64,000 nt of DNA from Candidatus Limnocylindrales bacterium (GCA_035632635.1 DASQGL010000068.1:10895-74894), one strand, 5' to 3'. Positions 8,360 to 62,792 are shown, counted from the stretch's first letter. Numbers and translations are program-made. The notes: generated by a model from the sequence alone, not told the origin.

Positions 8360-8829
8360 ACATCCAGGAAGCCGTCGACGGACTCGAGTACCTGATCGGG
8401 CACAGCCGGCAGATCCCGCTGACCCGAACGGTGGTCATCGACCAGGAGGAAGCGCTGCAGCTGATCGACAACCTGCGGCTCGCGCTTCCCGATGAGATCA
8501 AGCAGGCGCGCTGGACTCTGCAGGAGCAGCAGCGCCTGCTGTCGGAGGCGCAGGCGGAAGCGGCTCGCATGATCAGCCAGGCGGGCGAGCGGGCGCAGAC
8601 CATGATCGGGCAGCAGGAGCTGTCGCGCCGCGCGGAAAGACAGGCGGAGACGATCTTGCGCGAGGCCACCGCGCGGGCCGACGAGGTCCGGCGGGCGGCG
8701 GATGCGTATGCCTGGGAGGTCATGCAGAACCTGGAGGCGCAGCTGCTCAAGACGGTGGCCACCGTGAAGAAGGGCGTCGAAGCGCTCCGGAAGCCCGAGC
8801 GCGTCTCCGAGCTCGCCCAAAGACGGTAG
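8356..8829 (+). CDS. Hypothetical coiled-coil protein (ATP-synthase-b/FliH-like helical pattern)
   Basis: 157 aa, predicted highly helical with Q/E/A/R-rich heptads. 4-nt overlap with coaD. Function unknown. Confidence 0.5.
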   Translation: MNIQEAVDGLEYLIGHSRQIPLTRTVVIDQEEALQLIDNLRLALPDEIKQARWTLQEQQRLLSEAQAEAARMISQAGERAQTMIGQQELSRRAERQAETILREATARADEVRRAADAYAWEVMQNLEAQLLKTVATVKKGVEALRKPERVSELAQRR

Positions 8830-8945
8830 TCACCCGGCTTTTCGGCAGGCTTCGGGGATTCAGCCCCGCGGCCCGCCAGTTCCTGCTCTTCTCCTTCCTC
8901 ACCTTCACGGCCGGGACGATCTTCAGCCTGGTCTTCAACCTCTAT

Positions 8946-10055
8946 ATGAGTGCGCTCGGCTTTCGCAACGACGTCATCGGTATCTTCAACGCCCTGCCGG
9001 CGGTCGGCCTGATCGCGGTCGGGCTTCCCGTCGCCGCGCTGGCCGACCGGATCGGATACCGCGTCTTCGTACTCGGCTCGAGCGGCGTCGCCACGCTCGC
9101 CGCCATCGTCCTGGCGTCCTGTGGCGCCCGGCTGGCGGCGGTGCTCGCCGCGGGCACGTTCGCGCTCGGCCTGACCGTTCTCCAGCTGCTCGGCGTCCCG
9201 CTGCTCGCCCAGCTCAGCTCCCCGTCCGAGCGCGTGCTCCTCTTCTCGGTGAACGAGGCGCTCGCCTGGGCCGGCACGCTGTTGGGCAACCTGATCGGCG
9301 GCGCCCTGCCCGAAGCGGCCGCCCGCGTCACGCACGAGCCGGCGGCCTCGACGTCCTCGCTGCGCGCCGCCTTCGTGGCGACGGCGGCCCTCCTGCTGAT
9401 CGCGCTGCCGATCGGGGTGCGGCTGTCGGCGGCCGGCGGGCTCCGGCCCTCCGAGGTCTTTCCCCTGCGCGACATGGTGCGGGTCGATCTCGGGCGATTC
9501 GCACGGCTCCTGGGGCCGCAGTTGTTGCTCGGGCTGGCCGCCGGGATGCTGCTGAACTTCATCCAGCTGTTCCTGGCCCAGCGCTTCCACCTCGGCCCGG
9601 GGCCGATCGGGTTGGTCCTCGCCGGCGTGGCGGCGCTGACCGCGGCCACGTCGCTGATCGCCCCGGCGGTGAGCCGGCTGCTGGGGCTGCCGCGCGCGAT
9701 CGGCATCGCTCAGGTCCTCGGTTTCCCGCTCGTGCTCGGACTGGCGTTCGCGATGAACCTGCCGCTCGCGGTTGCCATCCTGGCGCTCCGGCAGGTCATC
9801 CTCAACCTGCAGTCGCCGCTCGTCCTCGCCTTCGGGATGAGCTACGTGGAGGCGCGGCAGCGAGCCCGGCTGGCGATCGCCCAGGAGGTGGCCTTCGGCA
9901 TCGGGTTCGGCGGGATCGGCCCGCTGCTCAGCGGGGTCCTCCAGGTCCGAGGTGGCTATCAGCTCGCCTTCAGCGTCAGCGCCGCCTTCTACCTGCTCGC
10001 CGGCCTGAGCTTTCTCGCGATCTTCGGCCGCGCTCAGCCGGCGCGACGCGCCTGA
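8946..10055 (+). CDS. MFS transporter. The listed start is the first canonical start; TM1 is encoded upstream from about 8829.
   Basis: 12-TM-like hydrophobic pattern. The upstream in-frame stretch encodes FLLFSFLTFTAGTIFSLVFNLY (a TM1-like segment) with no ATG/GTG/TTG. Confidence 0.7.
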   Translation: MSALGFRNDVIGIFNALPAVGLIAVGLPVAALADRIGYRVFVLGSSGVATLAAIVLASCGARLAAVLAAGTFALGLTVLQLLGVPLLAQLSSPSERVLLFSVNEALAWAGTLLGNLIGGALPEAAARVTHEPAASTSSLRAAFVATAALLLIALPIGVRLSAAGGLRPSEVFPLRDMVRVDLGRFARLLGPQLLLGLAAGMLLNFIQLFLAQRFHLGPGPIGLVLAGVAALTAATSLIAPAVSRLLGLPRAIGIAQVLGFPLVLGLAFAMNLPLAVAILALRQVILNLQSPLVLAFGMSYVEARQRARLAIAQEVAFGIGFGGIGPLLSGVLQVRGGYQLAFSVSAAFYLLAGLSFLAIFGRAQPARRA

Positions 10056-10097: not shown

Positions 10098-10274
10098 ATG
10101 GCCCTCCCCAAGACTCGCTACGCCCATGCGCGCCAGGGCGAACGCCGCGCCCACCTGGCGTTGAAGCGCCCGCGACTCGTCGACTGCCCGCAGTGCCATC
10201 GGCCGAAGCGGCCGCACACGATCTGCCGGAACTGCGGGTATTACGACGGTCGCGAGGTCATCAAGACCGACTAG
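10098..10274 (+). CDS. rpmF: 50S ribosomal protein L32
   Basis: 58 aa, below the ORF-track size cutoff: MALPKTRYAHARQGERRAHLALKRPRLVDCPQCHRPKRPHTICRNCGYYDGREVIKTD. A TATAAT hexamer sits 8 nt upstream of the ATG. Confidence 0.85.
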   Translation: MALPKTRYAHARQGERRAHLALKRPRLVDCPQCHRPKRPHTICRNCGYYDGREVIKTD

Positions 10275-10331
10275 CCGGATCCCGCCACGGTCGCCTTCCT
10301 GTTTCCGGGTCAGGGCGCCCAGTTCGTCGGG

Positions 10332-11216
10332 ATGGCGCGCGACCTGATCGAGCAGGACCCAGACGCCGCCGCGCTGCTGGCTGCGGCAGAATCCCGAATT
10401 CAGCTCCCGCTGCGCCGGCTCATGCTCGAGGGACCGGAGGAGCTGCTCCAGCGGACCGAGCACGCGCAGCCGGCGATCGTCTTCCACTCTCTGGCCCTGC
10501 TCGCCAGGCTGACCGCCGCGGGATGCCGGCCGGATGCCGTCGCCGGGCACAGCCTGGGAGAGTTCGCCGCGCTCGACGCCGCCGGCGGACTCGAGGCGCT
10601 GCCGGCGATCGAGGCGGTCGCGGCGCGCGGCCGGGCGATGGCGGCGGCGAGTTCCCCGGGCAGCGGCATGGCGGCCGTGCTCGGCCTGCCCGACGAGGTC
10701 GTCGAGCAGATCCTGGCCGGGCAGGCCGGTCACGACCTCGTGGTGGCCGCGAACTTCAACGCACCGGGGCAGGTCGTCATCTCGGGGACGGACGCCGGGA
10801 TCCGGGCGGTGACGCCGGCGCTCGAGAGGGCGGGTGCCAAGCGGATCCTGCGGCTCTCGGTCAGCGCCGCGTTCCACTCGCCCCTGATGGAGCAGGCCGC
10901 CTCGGCCTTCCGGCAGGCCTGGGCGGGGATCCCCCTCGTCCGGCTGACGGTTCCCCAGGTCTTCAACGCGGATGCGCAGGTTCACAAGGAGGCCGCGGAA
11001 GTCCGCGACCTGCTGGTCCGCCAGCTCACCGGACCGGTCCGCTGGACCGCCTGCGTCAGGCGGCTGTGGGGGCTGGGCGTGCGGACCTTCGTCGAAATCG
11101 GCCCCAAGCGGACGCTCACCCCGCTGGTCAAGAAGATCGAGCCCGCGGCGTCCACCTACAACGTCGAGGACCTGCACAGCCTGGACGCATTCGTGGAGAT
11201 GGCCCGTGCCAGCTGA
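10332..11216 (+). CDS. fabD: Malonyl-CoA:ACP transacylase. 10332 is the first canonical start; the conserved N-terminus begins about 10287.
   Basis: GHSLGEFAA active-site motif. The VAFLFPGQGAQ motif lies upstream of the ATG, in frame with and directly after the rpmF TAG stop. Confidence 0.85.
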   Translation: MARDLIEQDPDAAALLAAAESRIQLPLRRLMLEGPEELLQRTEHAQPAIVFHSLALLARLTAAGCRPDAVAGHSLGEFAALDAAGGLEALPAIEAVAARGRAMAAASSPGSGMAAVLGLPDEVVEQILAGQAGHDLVVAANFNAPGQVVISGTDAGIRAVTPALERAGAKRILRLSVSAAFHSPLMEQAASAFRQAWAGIPLVRLTVPQVFNADAQVHKEAAEVRDLLVRQLTGPVRWTACVRRLWGLGVRTFVEIGPKRTLTPLVKKIEPAASTYNVEDLHSLDAFVEMARAS

Positions 11217-12046: not shown

Positions 12047-12295
12047 ATGGACGGAAGCAATTACGAGAAGTTCAAGGGCATCGTCGCCGAGCAGCTCGGC
12101 GTCGAGCCCGAGCAGGTCACGCCCGACGCATCGTTCGTAGACGACTTGAACGCCGACTCGCTCGATCTCGTCGAGCTGATCATGGCGTTCGAGGAAGAAT
12201 ACAGTTTGGAGATCTCTGACGAGGACGCCGAAAAGATTCAGACCGTCGGGCAAGCCTGGGACTACGTCCAGGAAAAGCTCGGCATCACCACCTAA
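12047..12295 (+). CDS. acpP: Acyl carrier protein
   Basis: 82 aa with the [11 protein letters not shown] (DSL) motif. SD AAGGGG 7 nt upstream and a TACAAT -10 at 12009. Confidence 0.92.
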
Positions 12296-12464
12296 GTCAC
12301 CGAAGCCGCCCGCGGCCGAGGGAGAAGACCCGCTCGCCAATCTGCAGCGAACGCTGAGGGTCCGCTTCCACGACCAGTCGCTGCTGCGGCAGGCGCTGAC
12401 GCATCGTTCCTACAACAACGAGCATCCGGAGAGCGGGCTCCAGGACAATGAGCGCCTCGAGTAC

Positions 12465-13067
12465 TTGGGAGACGCCGTGCTCGAGCTGATCGCGGCCGAG
12501 CACCTGTTTCACACCTACCAGACGTCTGACGAGGGCGAACTGACCCGGCTCCGGGCCTCGGTTGTCAACACGAAGAGCCTGGCGCGCCTCGCGTCCCGGT
12601 TGAGCCTGGGTGACTACCTGCTGCTCGGCAAGGGCGCCCACAAGACGGGCGCGCGATCGCTGCAGTCGATCCTGGCGAACACGTTCGAGGCGGTCATCGG
12701 CGCCATCTTCCTCGACCAGGGGTACCGCTCCGCCTACCGCCTGTTCAGCCGGAGCCTGATCGATGTCCAGGCCTGGCCGGATGACAACTACAAGGGCAGG
12801 CTGCAGGAGGTGACCCAGGAGCGGTTCCTGACGACCCCGCAGTACGACATCGTCTCCGCCTCCGGCCCGGGGCACCGCCGCGAGTACGTGGCCGAGGTCA
12901 CCTTCGGCGGCGCGACCCAGGGTACCGGCCGGGGCCGGACCAAGCGCGCGGCCGAGCAGCTGGCGGCGCGCGAGGCGCTCGCCGGCCTGGGTGCGCTGGA
13001 GCCGGTGCCGCACACGGCCGATGACGCGGTCCTCGACGCGGTCGCCGGCCAACCCGCTCGGAGTTAG
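12465..13067 (+). CDS. rnc: Ribonuclease III. 12465 (TTG) is the first canonical start; the true N-terminus is upstream, about 12342–12351.
   Basis: The ERLEYLGDA signature and dsRBD are present. The conserved FHDQSLLRQALTHRSY...ERLEY is encoded upstream of the TTG, with no canonical start between the TGA at 12177 and 12465. Confidence 0.85.
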   Translation: MGDAVLELIAAEHLFHTYQTSDEGELTRLRASVVNTKSLARLASRLSLGDYLLLGKGAHKTGARSLQSILANTFEAVIGAIFLDQGYRSAYRLFSRSLIDVQAWPDDNYKGRLQEVTQERFLTTPQYDIVSASGPGHRREYVAEVTFGGATQGTGRGRTKRAAEQLAAREALAGLGALEPVPHTADDAVLDAVAGQPARS

Positions 13068-35997: not shown

Positions 35998-37092
35998 ATG
36001 AAGCCACGCCGCAAGTGTCAGCCGGTCCGCGTCGGAGACGTCGTGGTTGGCGGGGCGGCGCCGATCGTCGTGCAGTCGATGTGCAAGTCGGACACGCGCG
36101 ACGTCAAGGCGACCCTGGACGAGATCGCCCGGCTCAAGGACGTCGACTGCAAGATCGTTCGGGTGGCCGTTCCCACCCGGGAAGCGGCCGAAGCGATGAT
36201 CGAGATCAAGCGCTCCTCGCCGCTGCCGATCATCGCCGACATCCACTACGATTACCCGCTTGCGCTGGCCGCGCTCGACGCGGGCGTTGATGGCCTGCGG
36301 CTGAACCCCGGCAACATCCGCGATCCGGAGAAGGTCAAGGAGATCACCAGGAAGGCGAAGGAGCGCGAGGTTCCGATCCGGATCGGCGTCAATGCCGGCT
36401 CGCTGCCCGGCCGGGCCAAGGAGGGCGAAGGCCACCGGCCGCCCATGCAGGAAGTCGTGGACGCGATGGTCAGCGCGGCGCTCGGGCACATCCGGATCCT
36501 CGAGGCGCTCGACTTCAATCAGATCAAGGTCTCGATGAAGGCCTCGGACCCGCCCACCATGATCGCGGCCAACCGAGCGCTCGCCGACAAGATCTACTAT
36601 CCGCTCCATCTCGGTGTCACCGAATCGGGACCGCCGCGCACCGGGTCGGTCAAGAGCGCAGTCGGGATCGGGGTCCTGCTGGAGGAGGGGATCGGCGACA
36701 CGATCCGGGTTTCGCTGGCGGGCGACTCGGTGGAGGAGGTCGAGGTCGCCTACGGGATCATCAACGCGCTTTCCGAGAAGCAGACCGGGCCAAACCTGAT
36801 CGCCTGTCCCATGTGCGGCCGGCTGGAGATCGACATGCTGCCCATGGTCGCCGAGGTGGAGAAGGCGTTGAAGCGGATCAAGCGTCCGATCAACGTGTCG
36901 GTCATGGGCTGCGTCGTCAACGGACCCGGCGAGGGGCAGCATGCCGACATCGGCATCGCCGGTGGCAAGAACAAGGGCATTCTGTTCAAGCACGGCAAGA
37001 TCGTGGGCACCTACCCGGAGAAGGAGCTCGTCCCCGCCCTGCTCCGCGAGCTGGACGCGATCGCCGCCGAAGACGCCAAGCTCGCGAGCTAG
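35998..37092 (+). CDS. ispG: 4-hydroxy-3-methylbut-2-enyl diphosphate synthase
   Basis: VVQSMCKSDT and a C-terminal CPMCGR...GC cluster. Confidence 0.95.
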   Translation: MKPRRKCQPVRVGDVVVGGAAPIVVQSMCKSDTRDVKATLDEIARLKDVDCKIVRVAVPTREAAEAMIEIKRSSPLPIIADIHYDYPLALAALDAGVDGLRLNPGNIRDPEKVKEITRKAKEREVPIRIGVNAGSLPGRAKEGEGHRPPMQEVVDAMVSAALGHIRILEALDFNQIKVSMKASDPPTMIAANRALADKIYYPLHLGVTESGPPRTGSVKSAVGIGVLLEEGIGDTIRVSLAGDSVEEVEVAYGIINALSEKQTGPNLIACPMCGRLEIDMLPMVAEVEKALKRIKRPINVSVMGCVVNGPGEGQHADIGIAGGKNKGILFKHGKIVGTYPEKELVPALLRELDAIAAEDAKLAS

Positions 37093-37166
37093 GCAGGAGC
37101 GAGCCGCAGGCGCGGCGCTTTCAGCCGGGACCCCGCGACTACCCGGTCGGTATACTCAGCGGTCAC

Positions 37167-38582
37167 GTGAGCATCAAAAAGCAGTCCGAGGACTTCCCGG
37201 GCTGGTACCAGGACGTCGTCCGCAAGGCGGAGCTGGGCGATTACGCACCGGTGCGCGGGTGTATGGTCATGCGTCCCCTCGGCTACGGGCTGTGGGAGAA
37301 CATCCAGCGCGCGCTCGACGATCTCTTCAAGAAGACGGGTGTCGAGAACTGGTACTTCCCGGCGCTGATCCCGCTCAGCTTCCTGGAGAAGGAGAAGGAG
37401 CACGTGGAGGGCTTCGAGCCCGAGTTCGCCATGGTGACTCGGGGTGGGGGCAAGCAGCTCGAGGAACCGCTCGTGCTCCGGCCGACCTCCGAGACGATGA
37501 TTGCGACCGTGCTGCGCGACTACATCCACTCCTATCGCGATCTGCCGGTGCTCACCAATCAGTGGAACAACGTCTTCCGCTGGGAGCTGCGGACTCGCCT
37601 GTTCCTGCGCACGATGGAGTTCCTCTGGCAGGAAGGGCATACCTTCCACGAGACCGGCGAGGAAGCCGAGCGCCAGGTCCTGGAGAAGCTCGAGTGCTAC
37701 CGCCTGATCTCAGAGGACTGGTGCGCCATCCCGGTCTTTACCGGCCGCAAGTCGGAGACCGAGAAGTTCGCCGGGGCCCAGTATTCGATGGCGATCGAAG
37801 GCATGATGCGGGATGGCAAGGCGTTGCAGATGGGGACCTCACACTTCTTCGGCCAGAACTTCACTCGGGCTTACGACCTCACCTTCACGGGGCGGACGAA
37901 CGAGCTCCAGCATCCTTTCTCGACGAGCTGGGGGATGTCGACCCGCATGGTCGGGGCGATCGTGATGGCCCACGGAGACGACACCGGCCTGCAGCTGCCG
38001 CCGCGCATCGCGCCGATCCAGGTCGTGGTCGTCCCGATCTTCCGGACGGACGCCGAGCGCGCCCAGATCGAGGCCGCACTCGCGCCGATCCTGAGCGGGC
38101 TTCCCGGCATCCGGGTCCGGACCGACTGGCGGGATGAGCGGCCCGGCTTCAAGTTCAACGAATGGGAGCTGAAGGGGGTCCCGCTGCGCCTGGAGATCGG
38201 TCCCCGGGACCTGGCCAAAGGCGAGGTGACCCTGGTCCGGCGGCTGGATCGGGCCAAGGAGCCGGTCGCGATCGCGCAGCTGAAGGACGTCATCCCCGCC
38301 AGGCTGGACGAGATCCAGTCCGCGCTGCTGGCCCGCGCGCGGGCGTTCCGTGACGAGCACACGGTCCGGCTGGCGTCGCTGGACGAGATGGTCCGCTTCT
38401 TCGAATCCTCGCCGGGCTTCGTGATCACCCCATGGTGCCAGGACGCGGCGTGCGAGCTCAAGGTCAAGGGACTGACCCAGGCGACGACCAGGGTCCTGCT
38501 CGATGACCCGCCGGCGGGCCAGGTCTGCGCCGTCTGCGGGCGTCCGGCGACCGCGACGGTGGTCTGGGCCAAAGCGTACTAG
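37167..38582 (+). CDS. proS: Prolyl-tRNA synthetase, archaeal/eukaryotic-like type
   Basis: GTG start gives (M)SIKKQSEDFPGWYQDVVRKAELGDYAPVRGCMV, plus class II motifs and the short (~470 aa) architecture. TATACT 9 nt upstream. Confidence 0.9.
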   Translation: MSIKKQSEDFPGWYQDVVRKAELGDYAPVRGCMVMRPLGYGLWENIQRALDDLFKKTGVENWYFPALIPLSFLEKEKEHVEGFEPEFAMVTRGGGKQLEEPLVLRPTSETMIATVLRDYIHSYRDLPVLTNQWNNVFRWELRTRLFLRTMEFLWQEGHTFHETGEEAERQVLEKLECYRLISEDWCAIPVFTGRKSETEKFAGAQYSMAIEGMMRDGKALQMGTSHFFGQNFTRAYDLTFTGRTNELQHPFSTSWGMSTRMVGAIVMAHGDDTGLQLPPRIAPIQVVVVPIFRTDAERAQIEAALAPILSGLPGIRVRTDWRDERPGFKFNEWELKGVPLRLEIGPRDLAKGEVTLVRRLDRAKEPVAIAQLKDVIPARLDEIQSALLARARAFRDEHTVRLASLDEMVRFFESSPGFVITPWCQDAACELKVKGLTQATTRVLLDDPPAGQVCAVCGRPATATVVWAKAY

Positions 38583-49362: not shown

Positions 49363-49856
49363 AGGAGAGCCACAGCCGGGCGCACAGCGCGCCAACCGGG
49401 CATGTCCAAACCCCCGCCGCCGCCTCCGCCGCGCTCATCACCGAGATGAAGCTGCCCGCGGTCGAGGACTACATCCTGGCGGCGAAGCGGGCAGCCGGCG
49501 CCCTCGGCCTCGTGGTCGGCTTCTCGCTGCAGGAGATCGATGAACTGAACATCGCCGTGACCCAGGCTTGCGAGAACGGGATCGCGGCGGCCAACGAGCA
49601 ATGGGGTCGCGGCAACGGACAGCTCAAACTGCTCTTCAAGACCCAGCCTCGCCGCCTCGAGGTCGAGGTGCGCAGCGTTCCGCCCCGGGCGGTGGAGCTG
49701 CAGCAGGCGGTTCGCCAGGCCCGCCGCGAACAGGAATTCGACTACGAGACGGTTGGCGTCAATATGATCCGTCTCTTCGTCGATGAGCTCCGGTACCATC
49801 GGGACCATCAGACGGGAGTCATGCGGATGAGGATGGTCAAATACCTGATCGAGTAG
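49359..49856 (+). CDS. RsbW/SpoIIAB-like anti-sigma factor with degenerate ATP-binding motifs
   Basis: The N-terminus aligns with RsbW (EDYILAAKRAAGALG...DELNIAVTQACENGI). The DxGxG and GxGL boxes are not recognisable. AAGGAG SD 8 nt upstream. Confidence 0.7.
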   Translation: MKESHSRAHSAPTGHVQTPAAASAALITEMKLPAVEDYILAAKRAAGALGLVVGFSLQEIDELNIAVTQACENGIAAANEQWGRGNGQLKLLFKTQPRRLEVEVRSVPPRAVELQQAVRQARREQEFDYETVGVNMIRLFVDELRYHRDHQTGVMRMRMVKYLIE

Positions 49857-49984
49857 CCCGTCCGGCTTCGCAACCGACCGTTCGTCCCAACCGCGATCTC
49901 GCCCGCCGGCTTTTCCTCAAGTACCAGAAGACCAGGGATCCGAAGGTCCGCCAGCAGCTGGTCGAGCTCTTCAACAACCTGGTC

Positions 49985-50635
49985 GTGTTCCTGGCCAAGA
50001 AATTCCAGAACCGCGGTGAGCCCCTCGAGGACATCGTGCAGGTCGGGTATATCGGCTTGCTCCAGGCCATCGAGCGGTTCGAGCCGCAGCGGGATCTCGA
50101 GTTCTCGACCTTCGCCACGCCGACCATCGTGGGCGAGATCAAGCGCTACTTCCGGGACAAGAGCTGGGCGGTGAAGGTGCCCCGTCGCCTCCAGGAGACG
50201 ATGCAGAAGGCCGACCTGGCGCAGCAACGCCTCCAGGCACGCCTTGGCCGGCAGCCCTCGGTTGCGGAGATCGCGAAGGAGCTCGACCTTCCGCCCGAGG
50301 AGGTGCTCGCCGCCCAGGAGGCGAGCCCGGCTCAGCACACCGTCTCCTTCGAGAGCACCGGGCCGGCCGCCAGTGACGAGGATGGCCTGCAGCTGACCGA
50401 ACGCCTGGGCCGCGAGGACGAGAACCTGGACAAGGTCGAGCTGAAAGACCTGCTCGACCAGGCGATGGCGCACCTGACGCCGCGGGAACGGCGGATCATG
50501 TACCTGCGGTTCGTCGACGAGCTCCCCCAGGCGGAGGTCGCGAAACGGCTCGGAATCTCCCAGATGCACGTGTCCCGGCTCCAGCGGGCTGCGGTCGAGC
50601 ACCTGAAGCGAGAGCTGCCCGTCTCCGCCCGCTGA
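49985..50635 (+). CDS. RNA polymerase sigma factor, SigB/SigF (group 3) type. 49985 (GTG) is the first canonical start; region 1.2/2.1 is encoded upstream from about 49860.
   Basis: Regions 2–4 present: FSTFATPTIVGEIKRYFRDKSWAVKVPRR, and region 4 LGISQMHVSRLQRAAVEHLK (as in B. subtilis SigB). Confidence 0.85.
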   Translation: MFLAKKFQNRGEPLEDIVQVGYIGLLQAIERFEPQRDLEFSTFATPTIVGEIKRYFRDKSWAVKVPRRLQETMQKADLAQQRLQARLGRQPSVAEIAKELDLPPEEVLAAQEASPAQHTVSFESTGPAASDEDGLQLTERLGREDENLDKVELKDLLDQAMAHLTPRERRIMYLRFVDELPQAEVAKRLGISQMHVSRLQRAAVEHLKRELPVSAR

Positions 50636-60105: not shown

Positions 60106-60663
60106 ATGGTGGGTCCCAATGAATTCCGCAACGGCATGACGATCGAATGGGAGGGTGAGCCCTACATCGTGCTGCAGTTCCAGCAGAGCCAGCTTGGCCG
60201 CGGCGACACATTCTTCCGGACCAAGCTGAAGCATCTGCGGAGCGGCGCCATCATCGAGCAGAAGTTCCGGGACAAGGACCGATTCCCGCGCGTTCGGATC
60301 GAACGCGTGCCGATGCAGTATCTCTACAGTGATGGCGACCGCCATTTCTTTATGGACAGCCAGACCTATGACCAGATCCCTCTCAGTGATGAGCAGCTGG
60401 GCGACGCCCTCAAGTATCTGAAGGAGAACGCTCCCATCGAAGTGCTCATGTACGAAGGTGCGCCGCTCGGCGTAGAGTTGCCAACGACGGTGGATCTGAA
60501 GGTGACCCAGACGGCGCCCGGGTTCAAAGGGGACACTGCCGCGGGCGGCGGGAAGCCCGCGACCCTGGAAACGGGCCTCATCCTGAACGTGCCCTTCTTC
60601 GTCAACACCGGGGACGTGATCCGGGTGGATACGCGCACCGCGTCGTACGTGGAGCGGGTCTGA
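60106..60663 (+). CDS. efp: Elongation factor P
   Basis: EFRNGMTIEWEGEPYIV...KPGKG-type loop; 185 aa. Confidence 0.95.
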   Translation: MVGPNEFRNGMTIEWEGEPYIVLQFQQSQLGRGDTFFRTKLKHLRSGAIIEQKFRDKDRFPRVRIERVPMQYLYSDGDRHFFMDSQTYDQIPLSDEQLGDALKYLKENAPIEVLMYEGAPLGVELPTTVDLKVTQTAPGFKGDTAAGGGKPATLETGLILNVPFFVNTGDVIRVDTRTASYVERV

Positions 60664-61013
60664 TGGCCGAGCGGGGGCTCGGGTCGGTCAAGGTGGCCAA
60701 CGAGGTCATCGCCCACATTGCCGCGCTCACCGCCGGCCAGGTCCAGGGCATCGCCGGCCTGTACCATGCCGGGGCCCGGGATGGACACCGGGCGCTGCCG
60801 CCCCAGGCCGGCTACAAGGGCGTGCGCGTCGACATGACCAACGACAGCTTGCGCCTCGAACTGTTCCTGATCGTCGATCACTCCGCCCACGTCCCGACGG
60901 TGGCCGCCGAGGTTCAGCGCCAGGTGGCGGATGCGATCGACAAGATGCTGGGCATCGAGGTCCGCCAGGTGGATGTCTTCATCGGCGATGTGCGTTTTCT
61001 CGGAGATCAGTAG
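60663..61013 (+). CDS. Asp23/Gls24 family protein (second paralog, YqhY-like slot upstream of nusB)
   Basis: 116 aa with Asp23-family pattern (VANEVIAHIAALTAGQVQGIAGL...). Confidence 0.75.
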   Translation: MAERGLGSVKVANEVIAHIAALTAGQVQGIAGLYHAGARDGHRALPPQAGYKGVRVDMTNDSLRLELFLIVDHSAHVPTVAAEVQRQVADAIDKMLGIEVRQVDVFIGDVRFLGDQ

Positions 61014-61052
61014 ACGGGCAGGCGACACCTGGCCCGGGAGCTCGCGCTGAAG

Positions 61053-61418
61053 GTGCTCTTCGAGCTGGAGGGTGATGGCAACGATCCCGAGCGTTCGCTC
61101 GCCTATCACGTCAAGGAGGCCCGTGCCGACACCCAGGTGACCGAGTTCGCGCGGCTGCTGATCCAGGGGGTCCTCGAGCATCGCGGCGAAATCGACCGGG
61201 AGCTGAGCCAGGCCTCGCAGAACTGGGGCCTCGACCAGATGGCCAAGGTGGAGCGAACGCTGCTGCGGATCGCCACGTTCGAGATCCGGTTCCTGCCCAG
61301 CGTGCCGCTCAAGGCCGCGATCAACGAGTCGATCGAGCTCGCCAAGACGTTTGGCGGACCGGATTCGGGAAAGTTCGTGAACGGCATTCTGGGCAAGATC
61401 GCCGAGCAGCCCCGCTGA
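61053..61418 (+). CDS. nusB: Transcription antitermination factor NusB. 61053 (GTG) is the first canonical start; the conserved N-terminus begins at about 61014, directly after the upstream TAG.
   Basis: (TG)RRHLARELALKVLFELE aligns with the NusB N-terminus; the rest is typical. Confidence 0.85.
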   Translation: MLFELEGDGNDPERSLAYHVKEARADTQVTEFARLLIQGVLEHRGEIDRELSQASQNWGLDQMAKVERTLLRIATFEIRFLPSVPLKAAINESIELAKTFGGPDSGKFVNGILGKIAEQPR

Positions 61419-61627
61419 TGCAGGACGACGTCGACGCGATGACCTACGAGGAGGCGGTCACCGAGCTCGAGCGTGCGGTCGCCCTGTTGGGCCGCGAGCA
61501 GGACGACCTGGAGCTCGCGGTTCGCACCTATGAGCGCGGCCTGGCCCTGGCGCGGCGGTGCGCGCGCCTCCTCGACGACGCCAGGCTGAGGCTGGACCAG
61601 ATCATCGAGCCGGGGGCGCCGGCATGA
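61418..61627 (+). CDS. xseB: Exodeoxyribonuclease VII small subunit
   Basis: 69 aa: MTYEEAVTELERAVALLGREQDDLELAVRTYERGLALARRC. Confidence 0.85.
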   Translation: MQDDVDAMTYEEAVTELERAVALLGREQDDLELAVRTYERGLALARRCARLLDDARLRLDQIIEPGAPA

Positions 61628-62067
61628 GCGCGCTCATCCACAACCCGTACTTCGTCGTACCGATGATCGCCTGGGCGATCGCGCAGCTGGGCAAGGTGAT
61701 CGTCGATTCCGTGCTCGCTCACCGCCTCAGCATCCGGCGGCTGGCGACGGCCGGCGGGATGCCGAGCTCCCACAGTGCGCTCGTCGTCTGCCTGACGACG
61801 GTGATCGCCCGCCTCCAGGGGGTGCAGAGCGCGCTCTTCGCCCTGTCCGTGATCTTCTCCGCGGTCGTGATGTACGACGCCACCGGTGTCCGGCGGGCCG
61901 CCGGCCAGCAGGCGATGATCTTGAACCGCCTCCTCGACGACCTCTTCATCGCCCACCAGGGCATCCGCCAGGAGCGCCTGCGCGAGCTGCTCGGCCACAC
62001 GCCGATCGAGGTCATCGCCGGCGCGCTGCTGGGCATCGTCATCGGATGGGGACTGACGCCTCGCTGA
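61624..62067 (+). CDS. DUF212 / acid-phosphatase-vanadium-haloperoxidase-related membrane protein (YuiD-like)
   Basis: Polytopic, with GMPSSHSA and a second His motif (FIAHQG). ATGA overlap with xseB. Confidence 0.65.
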   Translation: MSALIHNPYFVVPMIAWAIAQLGKVIVDSVLAHRLSIRRLATAGGMPSSHSALVVCLTTVIARLQGVQSALFALSVIFSAVVMYDATGVRRAAGQQAMILNRLLDDLFIAHQGIRQERLRELLGHTPIEVIAGALLGIVIGWGLTPR

Positions 62068-62792
62068 CCCGGGTGCGCCTCGACCAGGCGCTCGTCCTGC
62101 GGGGGCTCGTCGCCTCGCGCGAGCGCGGCCAGGCGCTGATCCAGGCGGGCCTGGTGCTGGTCGCGGGCGTGCGGGGCAGCCGCCCGGACCAGCTCGTCAG
62201 CCCGGACGTCGAGCTGGCGATTGAGGGAAGCCGGACCTACGTGAGCCGGGGCGGCGAGAAGCTGGCCGCCGCGCTCGACGCCTTCGGCTTCGACCCGGCT
62301 GGTCGCGTGGGCCTCGATGTGGGCGCCTCGACCGGCGGGTTCACGGACGTCTTGCTCCGCCGTGGCGCGGCCGGCGTCATCGCGCTCGATGTCGGGTACG
62401 GGCAGCTGGCCTGGGCGCTCCGGCAGGATCCCCGGGTGACCGTGCTCGAGCGCGTCAACATTCGCGAGCTGGAGCACCTCCCGCGCCCTGCCGACTTCGC
62501 CGTCATCGACGTCTCCTTCATCTCGCTCCGGCTCGTCCTCCCGCGCGTCGCCGCCCTGCTCGATTCGCCGGGCGACGTGATCGCGCTGGTCAAGCCGCAA
62601 TTCGAGGTCGGCAGGGGACAGGTGGGGAAGGGAGGGATCGTGCGGCGCCCCGAGCAGCACGAGGCGGTGCTGCAGGGGCTGCGGGCCTTCGCCACGGGCC
62701 TCGGCTATGCGGTGATCGGGGAGTGCCCCTCGCCGATCCTGGGCGCTCGGGGCAACCGCGAGTTCTTTCTGTTCCTTCGACCTACAGGGTGA
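62046..62792 (+). CDS. tlyA: TlyA family rRNA 2'-O-methyltransferase (hemolysin A-like)
   Basis: S4 domain N-terminus (RLDQALVLRGL), YVSRGGEKL, and FtsJ-like fold motifs. Confidence 0.85.
   Translation: MGTDASLTRVRLDQALVLRGLVASRERGQALIQAGLVLVAGVRGSRPDQLVSPDVELAIEGSRTYVSRGGEKLAAALDAFGFDPAGRVGLDVGASTGGFTDVLLRRGAAGVIALDVGYGQLAWALRQDPRVTVLERVNIRELEHLPRPADFAVIDVSFISLRLVLPRVAALLDSPGDVIALVKPQFEVGRGQVGKGGIVRRPEQHEAVLQGLRAFATGLGYAVIGECPSPILGARGNREFFLFLRPTG

Follow-up and report, generated by a model that had tools for sequence, protein, structure and literature searches.

The subject of this analysis is the translation start of nusB in a 64,000-nucleotide (nt) stretch of DNA from Candidatus Limnocylindrales bacterium (GCA_035632635.1 DASQGL010000068.1:10895-74894), hereafter the window, which has a G+C content of 69%. 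Within it, efp, an Asp23-family gene (asp23), nusB, xseB, a DUF212 gene and a tlyA-like methyltransferase gene form a tightly packed same-strand run (60106-62792). The run opens with efp (elongation factor P; 60106..60663, + strand; Pfam EFP_N/EFP/Elong-fact-P_C), which served as a control gene and whose TGA overlaps the ATG of asp23 as TGATG. The asp23 gene (60663..61013, + strand; PF03780, 74.8 bits) ends in a TAG at 61011-61013. The inferred nusB coding sequence (61014..61418, + strand) comprises 134 codons and a TGA that overlaps the ATG of xseB (exonuclease VII small subunit; 61418..61627, + strand; PF02609), again as TGATG, and xseB shares an ATGA overlap with the following DUF212 gene. 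All junctions from efp to xseB measure 0 to -4 nt. Beside the TGATG, TGATG and ATGA junctions of this neighborhood, the asp23 TAG and the codon after it, an ACG, are separated by 0 nt, well inside the limit of about 10 nt used here for coupling between co-directional genes.

This ACG (61014..61016, + strand), which directly abuts the TAG, is the proposed nusB initiator and is orthologous to the ATG, GTG or TTG start of relatives. The frame after the stop reads ACG(61014) GGC AGG CGA CAC CTG GCC CGG GAG CTC GCG CTG AAG GTG(61053), and its translation from the ACG is TGRRHLARELALKVLFELE, also written as TGRRHLARELALKV or T-GRRHLARELALK-V. No ATG, GTG or TTG was found in the in-frame sequence between TAG 61011-13 and GTG 61053. 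The conserved residues follow the TAG directly, and the first canonical codon, GTG 61053..61055 (+ strand), is residue 14, which is the pattern of a gene with a non-canonical start. This GTG is where a protein of the Logan collection begins (P0001, 121 aa), and it is probably not the real start. A third candidate, the near-cognate CTG at codon 6 (61029..61031, + strand), is the start annotated by NCBI (HYM50175.1, 129 aa). A Shine-Dalgarno-like GGAG (61002..61005, + strand) lies inside the last asp23 codons, 8 nt upstream of the ACG. With a canonical anti-Shine-Dalgarno sequence assumed, its duplex energy is -6.6 kcal/mol, in the upper range among the genes of the window.

The NusB profile PF01029 matches the translation from ACG to stop with 120.4 bits (cut-off 23.1), residues 6-130 corresponding to profile positions 2-132/133. 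Furthermore, alignment with solved NusB structures (E-values down to 2e-21) places residues 6-131 of E. coli NusB against residues 4-130 of the query. Residue 14 falls within the conserved N-terminal segment of this alignment. The basic N-terminus and helix 1, with the conserved pattern R-x-x-A-R-E-x-A-x-x-x-L-F/Y, are encoded in frame; the product would contain this pattern in full only with ACG initiation and in part with CTG initiation. The original prediction, made from the sequence alone, had described a conserved NusB N-terminus in frame from the ACG after the TAG, with the GTG lying inside the first conserved segment, and both observations were confirmed, the latter by the E. coli alignment. 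Its description of the ACG as the only plausible start was overstated, since CTG 61029 is a start codon of translation table 11 and is the one annotated by NCBI.

The nusB start in related genomes

More than 1600 NusB homologues were found in a collection of 5.8 billion proteins, and the closest of them are labelled Candidatus Dormibacteraeota or Chloroflexi. More than 100 close Dormibacterota-type proteins start with M/V/L-GRRHLARELALK, and among those inspected the pattern is M/V/L-GRRHLARELALKVLFELE. The sole exception among the inspected starts is P0001, 98% identical, which was called from the internal GTG. At the DNA level, 81 species-level relatives, drawn from GTDB representatives and further contigs, were compared, and 61 of them have a canonical codon exactly where the window has ACG 61014 (ATG in 27, GTG in 22 and TTG in 12). 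By this alignment, ACG 61014 is the ancestral nusB start position (position 0 below), and a single T-to-C change would convert ATG to ACG. An ACG at position 0 was seen only in the window and in one further contig (L001), which together represent one species-level lineage.

The codons between the ACG and the GTG evolve as coding sequence. Compared with the nearest relatives with canonical starts, codons 2-13 contain 5-6 synonymous and no non-synonymous differences, whereas in codons 14-60 the ratio of synonymous to non-synonymous differences to the same relatives is about 1:1. Because codons 2-13 differ from these relatives only synonymously, they are evidently translated, and at the level of codon comparison purifying selection on them is demonstrated. 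Codon 14 itself, the GTG, is a synonymous variant of a valine codon that is GTC in many relatives, including L003, L029, L069, L038 and L046. The NusB N-terminus contacts BoxA RNA, and the N-terminal residues of the E. coli protein become ordered upon RNA binding (PMC3177189). Judging from the constraint on these codons, a protein starting at GTG 61053 would lose the most constrained part of NusB.

The window is not the only locus of this kind. Besides it, in eight of the 81 loci the reading frame contains no ATG, GTG or TTG from its upstream stop to the conserved residues, and together with the window they make up six independent nusB lineages. All six possess a codon one base away from ATG between -9 and 0 of the ancestral start. 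In L003 and L069 it is a CTG at position 0, from which NCBI annotates the L003 protein (P0011). L038 and L042 carry an ATT at -9 that overlaps the asp23 stop as gATTAGc. An ACG is found at -6 in L046, 1 nt past the asp23 TGA, at -9 in the L029 group (L029, L032 and L034), and at position 0 in the window, directly behind the TAG. As a control, any near-cognate codon occurs in the four preceding codons (-12 to -3) in 17 of 60 loci with canonical starts; nearly all of these are CTG, and ACG occurs in one. The residues GRRH/GKRH...ARELALK are retained, with synonymous change only, in all six lineages.

These lineages also share a closely spaced upstream stop. No more than 10 nt separate the asp23 stop from NusB position 0 in 6/6 lineages that lack a canonical start, compared with 26/61 loci with a canonical one (Fisher p = 0.009). 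The efficiency of termination-reinitiation falls with distance, as measured in E. coli and Haloferax (PMC10666635), and the 6/6 stops within 10 nt agree with this dependence. In the same set of related contigs, the control genes carry a canonical start at the expected place throughout: efp in 75/75, asp23 in 77/77 and xseB in 40/40. Since these control genes are always canonical, the missing nusB starts do not result from poor assembly and are gene-specific.

Three broader explanations were considered and rejected. Genome-wide sloppiness of start codons is ruled out by the canonical efp, asp23 and xseB starts in all relatives checked. Reassignment of TAG is excluded, as the products of rpmF and asp23 end at matching C-terminal residues whether the stop is TAG or, in relatives, TAA or TGA. 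C-to-U RNA editing of ACG to AUG, of the organelle type, was discarded because at these positions the codon in sister lineages can be ATC, ATT, ATA or CTG, none of which becomes AUG by a C-to-U change.

fabD, the MFS transporter gene and other genes of the window

The original prediction had named fabD as a second case, and this was borne out. The preceding gene, rpmF (ribosomal protein L32; 10098..10274, + strand; PF01783), ends in TAG 10272-10274, and the frame behind it, CCG GAT CCC GCC ACG(10287) GTC GCC TTC CTG TTT CCG GGT CAG, encodes the conserved VAFLFPGQGAQ. Read from ACG 10287-89, fabD (10287..11216, + strand) begins 18 nt before the Pro codon of FPGQGAQ, with a predicted N-terminus of (M)VAFLFPGQGAQF. 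The first canonical start, ATG 10332, lies past this motif. In other phyla, the ATG of fabD precedes the same Pro codon by 18 nt in 49 of 65 sequences and by 21 nt in 14 of 65. NCBI starts the protein at CTG 10299 (HYM50124.1), the CTG at -6 that is also used in P0139; this codon is not conserved and is CTC in several lineages.

The fabD start position was read in 12 Dormibacterota-type sequences, with offsets in nt from the Pro codon of FPGQG. ACG at -18 is found in the window, in L165 (71% identical) and in L170 (63% identical), and in these three lineages no other codon of this kind separates the conserved strand from the rpmF stop. ATC occurs at -18 in L164 and L168 and at -21 in L084, L085, L086, L088 and L089, while ATT occupies -21 in L087 and L171-174. 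L166 has an ATA at -24 that overlaps the rpmF TAG, and L083 has an ATG. Outside the ACG lineages, the candidates (ATC, ATT, ATA, ATG) span -18 to -30. The ATA candidate overlaps the upstream rpmF stop as gaATAGg in both L166 and L167.

Public FabD entries from these bacteria are affected. About 109 of the best 120 FabD matches in the protein collection, all Dormibacterota-type, have called lengths of 288-295 aa, with MARDL as the first residues of those inspected. Overall, about 90% of the best 120 matches start past the catalytic GQG motif. The truncated calls lack FPGQGAQ and with it the oxyanion-hole Gln. The truncation of FabD is a systematic mis-annotation in public collections.

A third gene with an ACG beside an upstream stop encodes an MFS transporter (8823..10055, + strand, when read from ACG 8823-25). 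Its ACG stands 1 nt before the TAG of the upstream open reading frame (ORF), TAG 8827-29, in the arrangement ACGGTAG. The Pfam MFS_1 match opens 21 codons ahead of the first canonical start, ATG 8946. NCBI chose CTG 8883 (HYM50122.1), and the conserved ...RL(x)xFSPAARQFL... segment of the orthologues lies upstream of that codon. ACG 8823 is the only near-cognate codon upstream of the FSPAARQF segment. The junction ACG-N-TAR precedes the MFS gene in four species, as ACGGTAG in the window, ACGCTAG in L175 (70% identical) and ACGGTAA in L176 and L177; in the latter two the upstream gene is a different one, encoding a mechanosensitive channel. About half of the MFS homologues in the database are called at 370-390 aa and are N-terminally truncated.

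Such codons, which may be maintained in evolution, recur with six independent origins at nusB, ACG in three lineages at fabD and ACG-N-TAR in four species at the MFS gene. PGAP chose CTG starts for nusB, fabD and the MFS gene alike (HYM50175.1, HYM50124.1, HYM50122.1). The suspicion of an annotation trap, raised from the sequence at the outset, proved justified across the lineage, as gene callers either truncate these proteins or pick a CTG.

The remainder of the window was surveyed by Pfam searches on stop-to-stop translations of about 45 ORFs and by inspection of junctions. In five of the roughly 45-60 genes of the window (nusB, fabD, the MFS gene, rnc and a sigma-factor gene), conservation, either of a domain or of the N-terminus, sets in ahead of the first canonical start. 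In three of these five, an ACG stands at the inferred start beside an upstream stop. The rnc gene (RNase III; 12180-13067) follows acpP, whose TAA is at 12293-95. Its first ATG, GTG or TTG is TTG 12465 (codon 96), its Pfam domain opens at codon 65, and the conserved DEPLxxLQRTLRVRFHD comes directly after the acpP stop. In the five relatives read (L170, L084, L086 and L088 among them), as in the window, no canonical start precedes the conserved rnc segment DEPLQKLQRTLRVRFHD. NCBI annotates rnc of L170 from a CTG 80 nt inside acpP. Candidate rnc starts in the window are CTG 12342, ACG 12351 and ACG 12264.

In the sigma-factor gene (49787-50635), the first canonical start is GTG 49985 (codon 67), Sigma70_r2 opens at codon 58, and homologues align about 25-40 codons further upstream. 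A GAGGA (49829-33) is followed, after a spacer of 7 nt, by an ATA at 49841. The gene is uncoupled, with a gap of about 480 nt before it. The out-of-frame ATGs 49827 and 49833 nearby meet a stop at 49854. As a possible sixth case, rnhB was set aside, as it has a canonical TTG (22019), its only one, 64 nt inside rplS. From CTG 22034 to the conserved LWVFERQ after the rplS TGA (22081-83) there is no canonical or near-cognate codon, and the rplS/rnhB overlap, if real, is unusually long.

Several further features were recorded. Matches to a -10 box lie close to two starts, TATAAT 9 nt before the rpmF ATG 10098 and TATAAC 6 nt before ATG 2174. Together with the many genes without a Shine-Dalgarno sequence, these near-start boxes hint at very short leaders or leaderless mRNAs. 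The ORF at 36813-38582 resembles prolyl-tRNA synthetase by translation alone. A tRNA scan of the window found no tRNA genes. The genome, that of a soil bacterium, carries the label Candidatus Limnocylindrales (Chloroflexota), whereas its NusB, FabD and MFS proteins have their nearest relatives mostly under the label Candidatus Dormibacteraeota/Dormiibacterota.

Interpretation of the asp23-nusB junction

The reading that we favor, with a probability of roughly 55%, is near-cognate initiation of nusB at the ACG, coupled to the termination of asp23. The gene would be functional, its ancestral ATG, GTG or TTG start having turned into ACG in this species-level lineage. A ribosome ending asp23 at TAG 61011-13 would already sit at the next codon and could reinitiate there with fMet-tRNA, as ACG would match the CAU anticodon at positions 1 and 3, and the GGAG 8 nt upstream may help. 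The predicted product is the full-length NusB of 134 aa, made at a low level relative to Asp23, possibly with parallel minor initiation at CTG 61029. In the same way, fabD and the MFS gene would be reinitiated from the upstream stop, and the downstream protein would then be made in a low and constant proportion to the upstream one. We infer from the comparative evidence that the ACG is decoded as initiator and that this depends on asp23 termination.

The start codons seen in these lineages (ACG, ATC, ATT, ATA and CTG) are all single-base neighbors of AUG. Such neighbors were reportedly found by Sussman et al. in 1996 to be discriminated against by IF3 of E. coli and still to initiate at roughly the percent level. 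In E. coli, ACG supports low-level initiation with an N-terminal Met, yielding Met-initiated GFP (Hecht et al., bioRxiv 10.1101/063800). The two mechanisms that the original prediction had offered, genuine ACG initiation and termination-reinitiation, thus gain comparative support from the recurrence of ACG beside upstream stops in nusB, fabD and the MFS gene, with initiation at ACG itself still argued from sequence. Orthologues with a clear ATG or GTG at this codon, which the prediction had named together with a sequencing discrepancy as evidence against ACG, do exist, whereas the discrepancy was not found: a second assembly has the same TAG-ACG.

Several points weigh against ACG initiation. 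The AUG-to-ACG change severely cut synthesis of the phage T7 0.3 protein (PMC5499595), and because of this strong reduction ACG has to be regarded as a weak initiator. CTG initiates better than ACG in E. coli (Hecht et al., bioRxiv 10.1101/063800), and CTG 61029 lies only 15 nt downstream. Duplex energies of about -6.5 kcal/mol precede the ACG, CTG 61029 and GTG 61053 alike, at differing spacings, and do not discriminate among them; since, in addition, many real genes of the window have no Shine-Dalgarno sequence at all, its strength does not settle the nusB start. In the L029 group, the candidate ACG is 14 nt upstream of the asp23 stop and abuts a GGAGG, a geometry that is not obviously favorable. 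ACG at position 0 was seen in a single species-level lineage; the mutation that removed the start could be very recent, and the conserved N-terminus no more than an inheritance. The second assembly, moreover, may come from the same or a related sample, so that its independence is only partial.

The closest competitor is translation from CTG 61029, giving a NusB of 129 aa that contains ARELALK and not GRRH. Table 11 accepts CTG as a start, and in E. coli no other non-canonical codon is stronger (Hecht et al., bioRxiv 10.1101/063800); here it was the choice of PGAP (HYM50175.1), it coincides with the beginning of the Pfam NusB match, and it follows the asp23 stop at a distance of only 15 nt. We nevertheless consider this start unlikely. 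The equivalent codon is CAG or CTC in 4/6 lineages without a canonical start, which therefore cannot use it, and residues 2-5 (GRRH/GKRH), which it would leave out, are conserved with synonymous change only. The GGAG at 61002-05 is 23 nt away from it. The annotation itself is weakened by PGAP's parallel CTG choices, which remove the conserved strand ahead of FPGQG from FabD and the conserved FSPAARQF from the MFS protein; as these truncations show, PGAP picks CTG because ACG is outside its allowed start set. A recent loss of the start, leaving a truncated protein of 121 aa from GTG 61053 or a pseudogene in the making, appears more doubtful still. GTG 61053 is the only canonical start and is used by a standard gene caller (P0001), the position-0 ACG is restricted to a single lineage, and nusB is dispensable in some bacteria. 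However, such a loss would remove 13 residues that include the most conserved stretch and the RNA-contacting N-terminus, and the GTG is a synonymous variant of GTC that is absent from the other lineages lacking a canonical start. The ORF is otherwise intact, and both strains share the ACG and elsewhere have only conservative I/L differences.

That the true codon is ATG and the ACG a sequencing or assembly artefact is improbable. Exchanging one C for T would bring back the ancestral ATG, the window is part of a third-party metagenome assembly, and the sole confirming contig may stem from related reads. Nevertheless, this contig (L001, assembled separately in Logan from SRR6788486) repeats the ...CAG TAG ACG GGC... 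junction, differs from the window at 6 of the 3997 nt compared and also agrees on the fabD ACG; analogous ACG starts occur in metagenome-assembled genomes of unrelated studies (L165, L170, L175-L177), and the neighboring control genes are clean. An exact scan of JGI metagenome contigs with the start-junction pattern, with NNN at the start codon, gave no matches. Least probable of all is read-through of TAG 61011-13 into an Asp23-NusB fusion. The two ORFs do share a frame with no spacer, and a TAG with A as the next base does not terminate strongly in E. coli. Of the six lineages without a canonical start, however, only the window and L003 have the two genes in frame, and in L069, L029, L038 and L046 they are out of frame. 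The asp23-nusB spacers vary from -1 to 186 nt among relatives, and at most rpmF-fabD and upstream-gene/MFS junctions the two frames differ.

Comparison with known systems and significance

The closest known parallels of the proposed near-cognate initiation at the nusB ACG are infC (IF3), with AUU, AUA or AUC, and pcnB, with AUU, in E. coli and other bacteria, which would share with it a conserved start one base from AUG, low or regulated expression and discrimination by IF3 (PMC5499595; PMC2830850). Their codons AUU, AUA and AUC are table-11 starts, whereas here the codon is ACG, and infC autoregulation, unlike the nusB junction, is not tied to an abutting upstream stop. ACG is not in the table-11 start set. 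The annotated bacterial starts listed by Hecht et al. are only ATG, GTG, TTG, CTG, ATT, ATC and ATA (bioRxiv 10.1101/063800). Non-canonical starts make up 0.004-0.024% of annotated starts and are thought to serve well under 0.1% of bacterial genes (PMC5499595).

In Deinococcus-Thermus, dnaA (ATC), rpsL (CTG) and infC (ATA) similarly have housekeeping N-termini upstream of the canonical starts, codons conserved across relatives and mis-calls by annotation pipelines (PMC2830850). Those starts were proven by N-terminal proteomics in a study that covered CTG, ATT, ATA and ATC and not ACG (PMC2830850), whereas the evidence presented here is comparative. Unlike these cases, nusB, fabD and the MFS gene sit directly behind the stop of another gene. 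In this they resemble termination-reinitiation pairs (ATGA, TGATG, ATTAG), which have same-strand junctions of -8 to +10 nt and an efficiency that depends steeply on distance (PMC10666635; PMC6728339). For such pairs, ATT has been suggested as the start in ATTAG-type overlaps, and overlaps of -5 and -4 have been suggested to need non-canonical starts (PMC10666635). The gATTAGc of L038 and L042 and the gaATAGg of L166 and L167 correspond to these -5/-4 overlap types. The coupled pairs described to date have almost exclusively canonical starts, whereas here the restart would occur at ACG or another near-cognate, and loss of the canonical start was confined to loci whose upstream stop is no more than 10 nt away. 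An ACG in a conserved start position is also found in eukaryotic, viral and organellar genes (yeast ALA1, AAV VP2, and plastid and mitochondrial ACG edited to AUG), but these require a scanning 40S subunit with eIF2 or C-to-U editing, neither of which is known for bacterial mRNAs. A literature search for a natural bacterial ACG start returned eukaryotic, viral, organellar and synthetic-reporter cases only, which is no proof of novelty. Set against the known systems, the apparently new elements would be an initiator outside the standard set, its recurrence across genes and lineages, and the association of canonical start loss with an abutting upstream stop.

A wider proposal, which we put forward tentatively as a little short of an even chance, is that Dormibacterota-type bacteria may employ ACG as a genuine and evolutionarily maintained start beside ATC, ATT, ATA and CTG, preferably for reinitiated genes directly behind another stop. 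The gene pairs concerned would be those encoding L32-FabD, Asp23-NusB, the upstream protein and the MFS transporter, and possibly ACP-RNase III. Standard gene finders cannot annotate ACG starts, and the outcome is either a truncated protein or an arbitrarily placed CTG. In a major soil lineage, such mis-calls carry over into predicted structures, the assignment of orthologues and metaproteomic databases, and thousands of database entries would be wrongly truncated at the N-terminus if the wider proposal holds.

If near-cognate initiation of nusB at the ACG is correct, it would represent natural, evolutionarily tested ACG initiation in bacteria. It would link start-codon stringency to termination-reinitiation and would provide a simple means of setting expression ratios within an operon. 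If it extends to the other gene pairs, the weak start would amount to a built-in brake on production of the downstream protein, and start discrimination may be relaxed in these bacteria, either in post-termination ribosomes or through lineage-specific features of IF3, the initiator tRNA or 16S rRNA.

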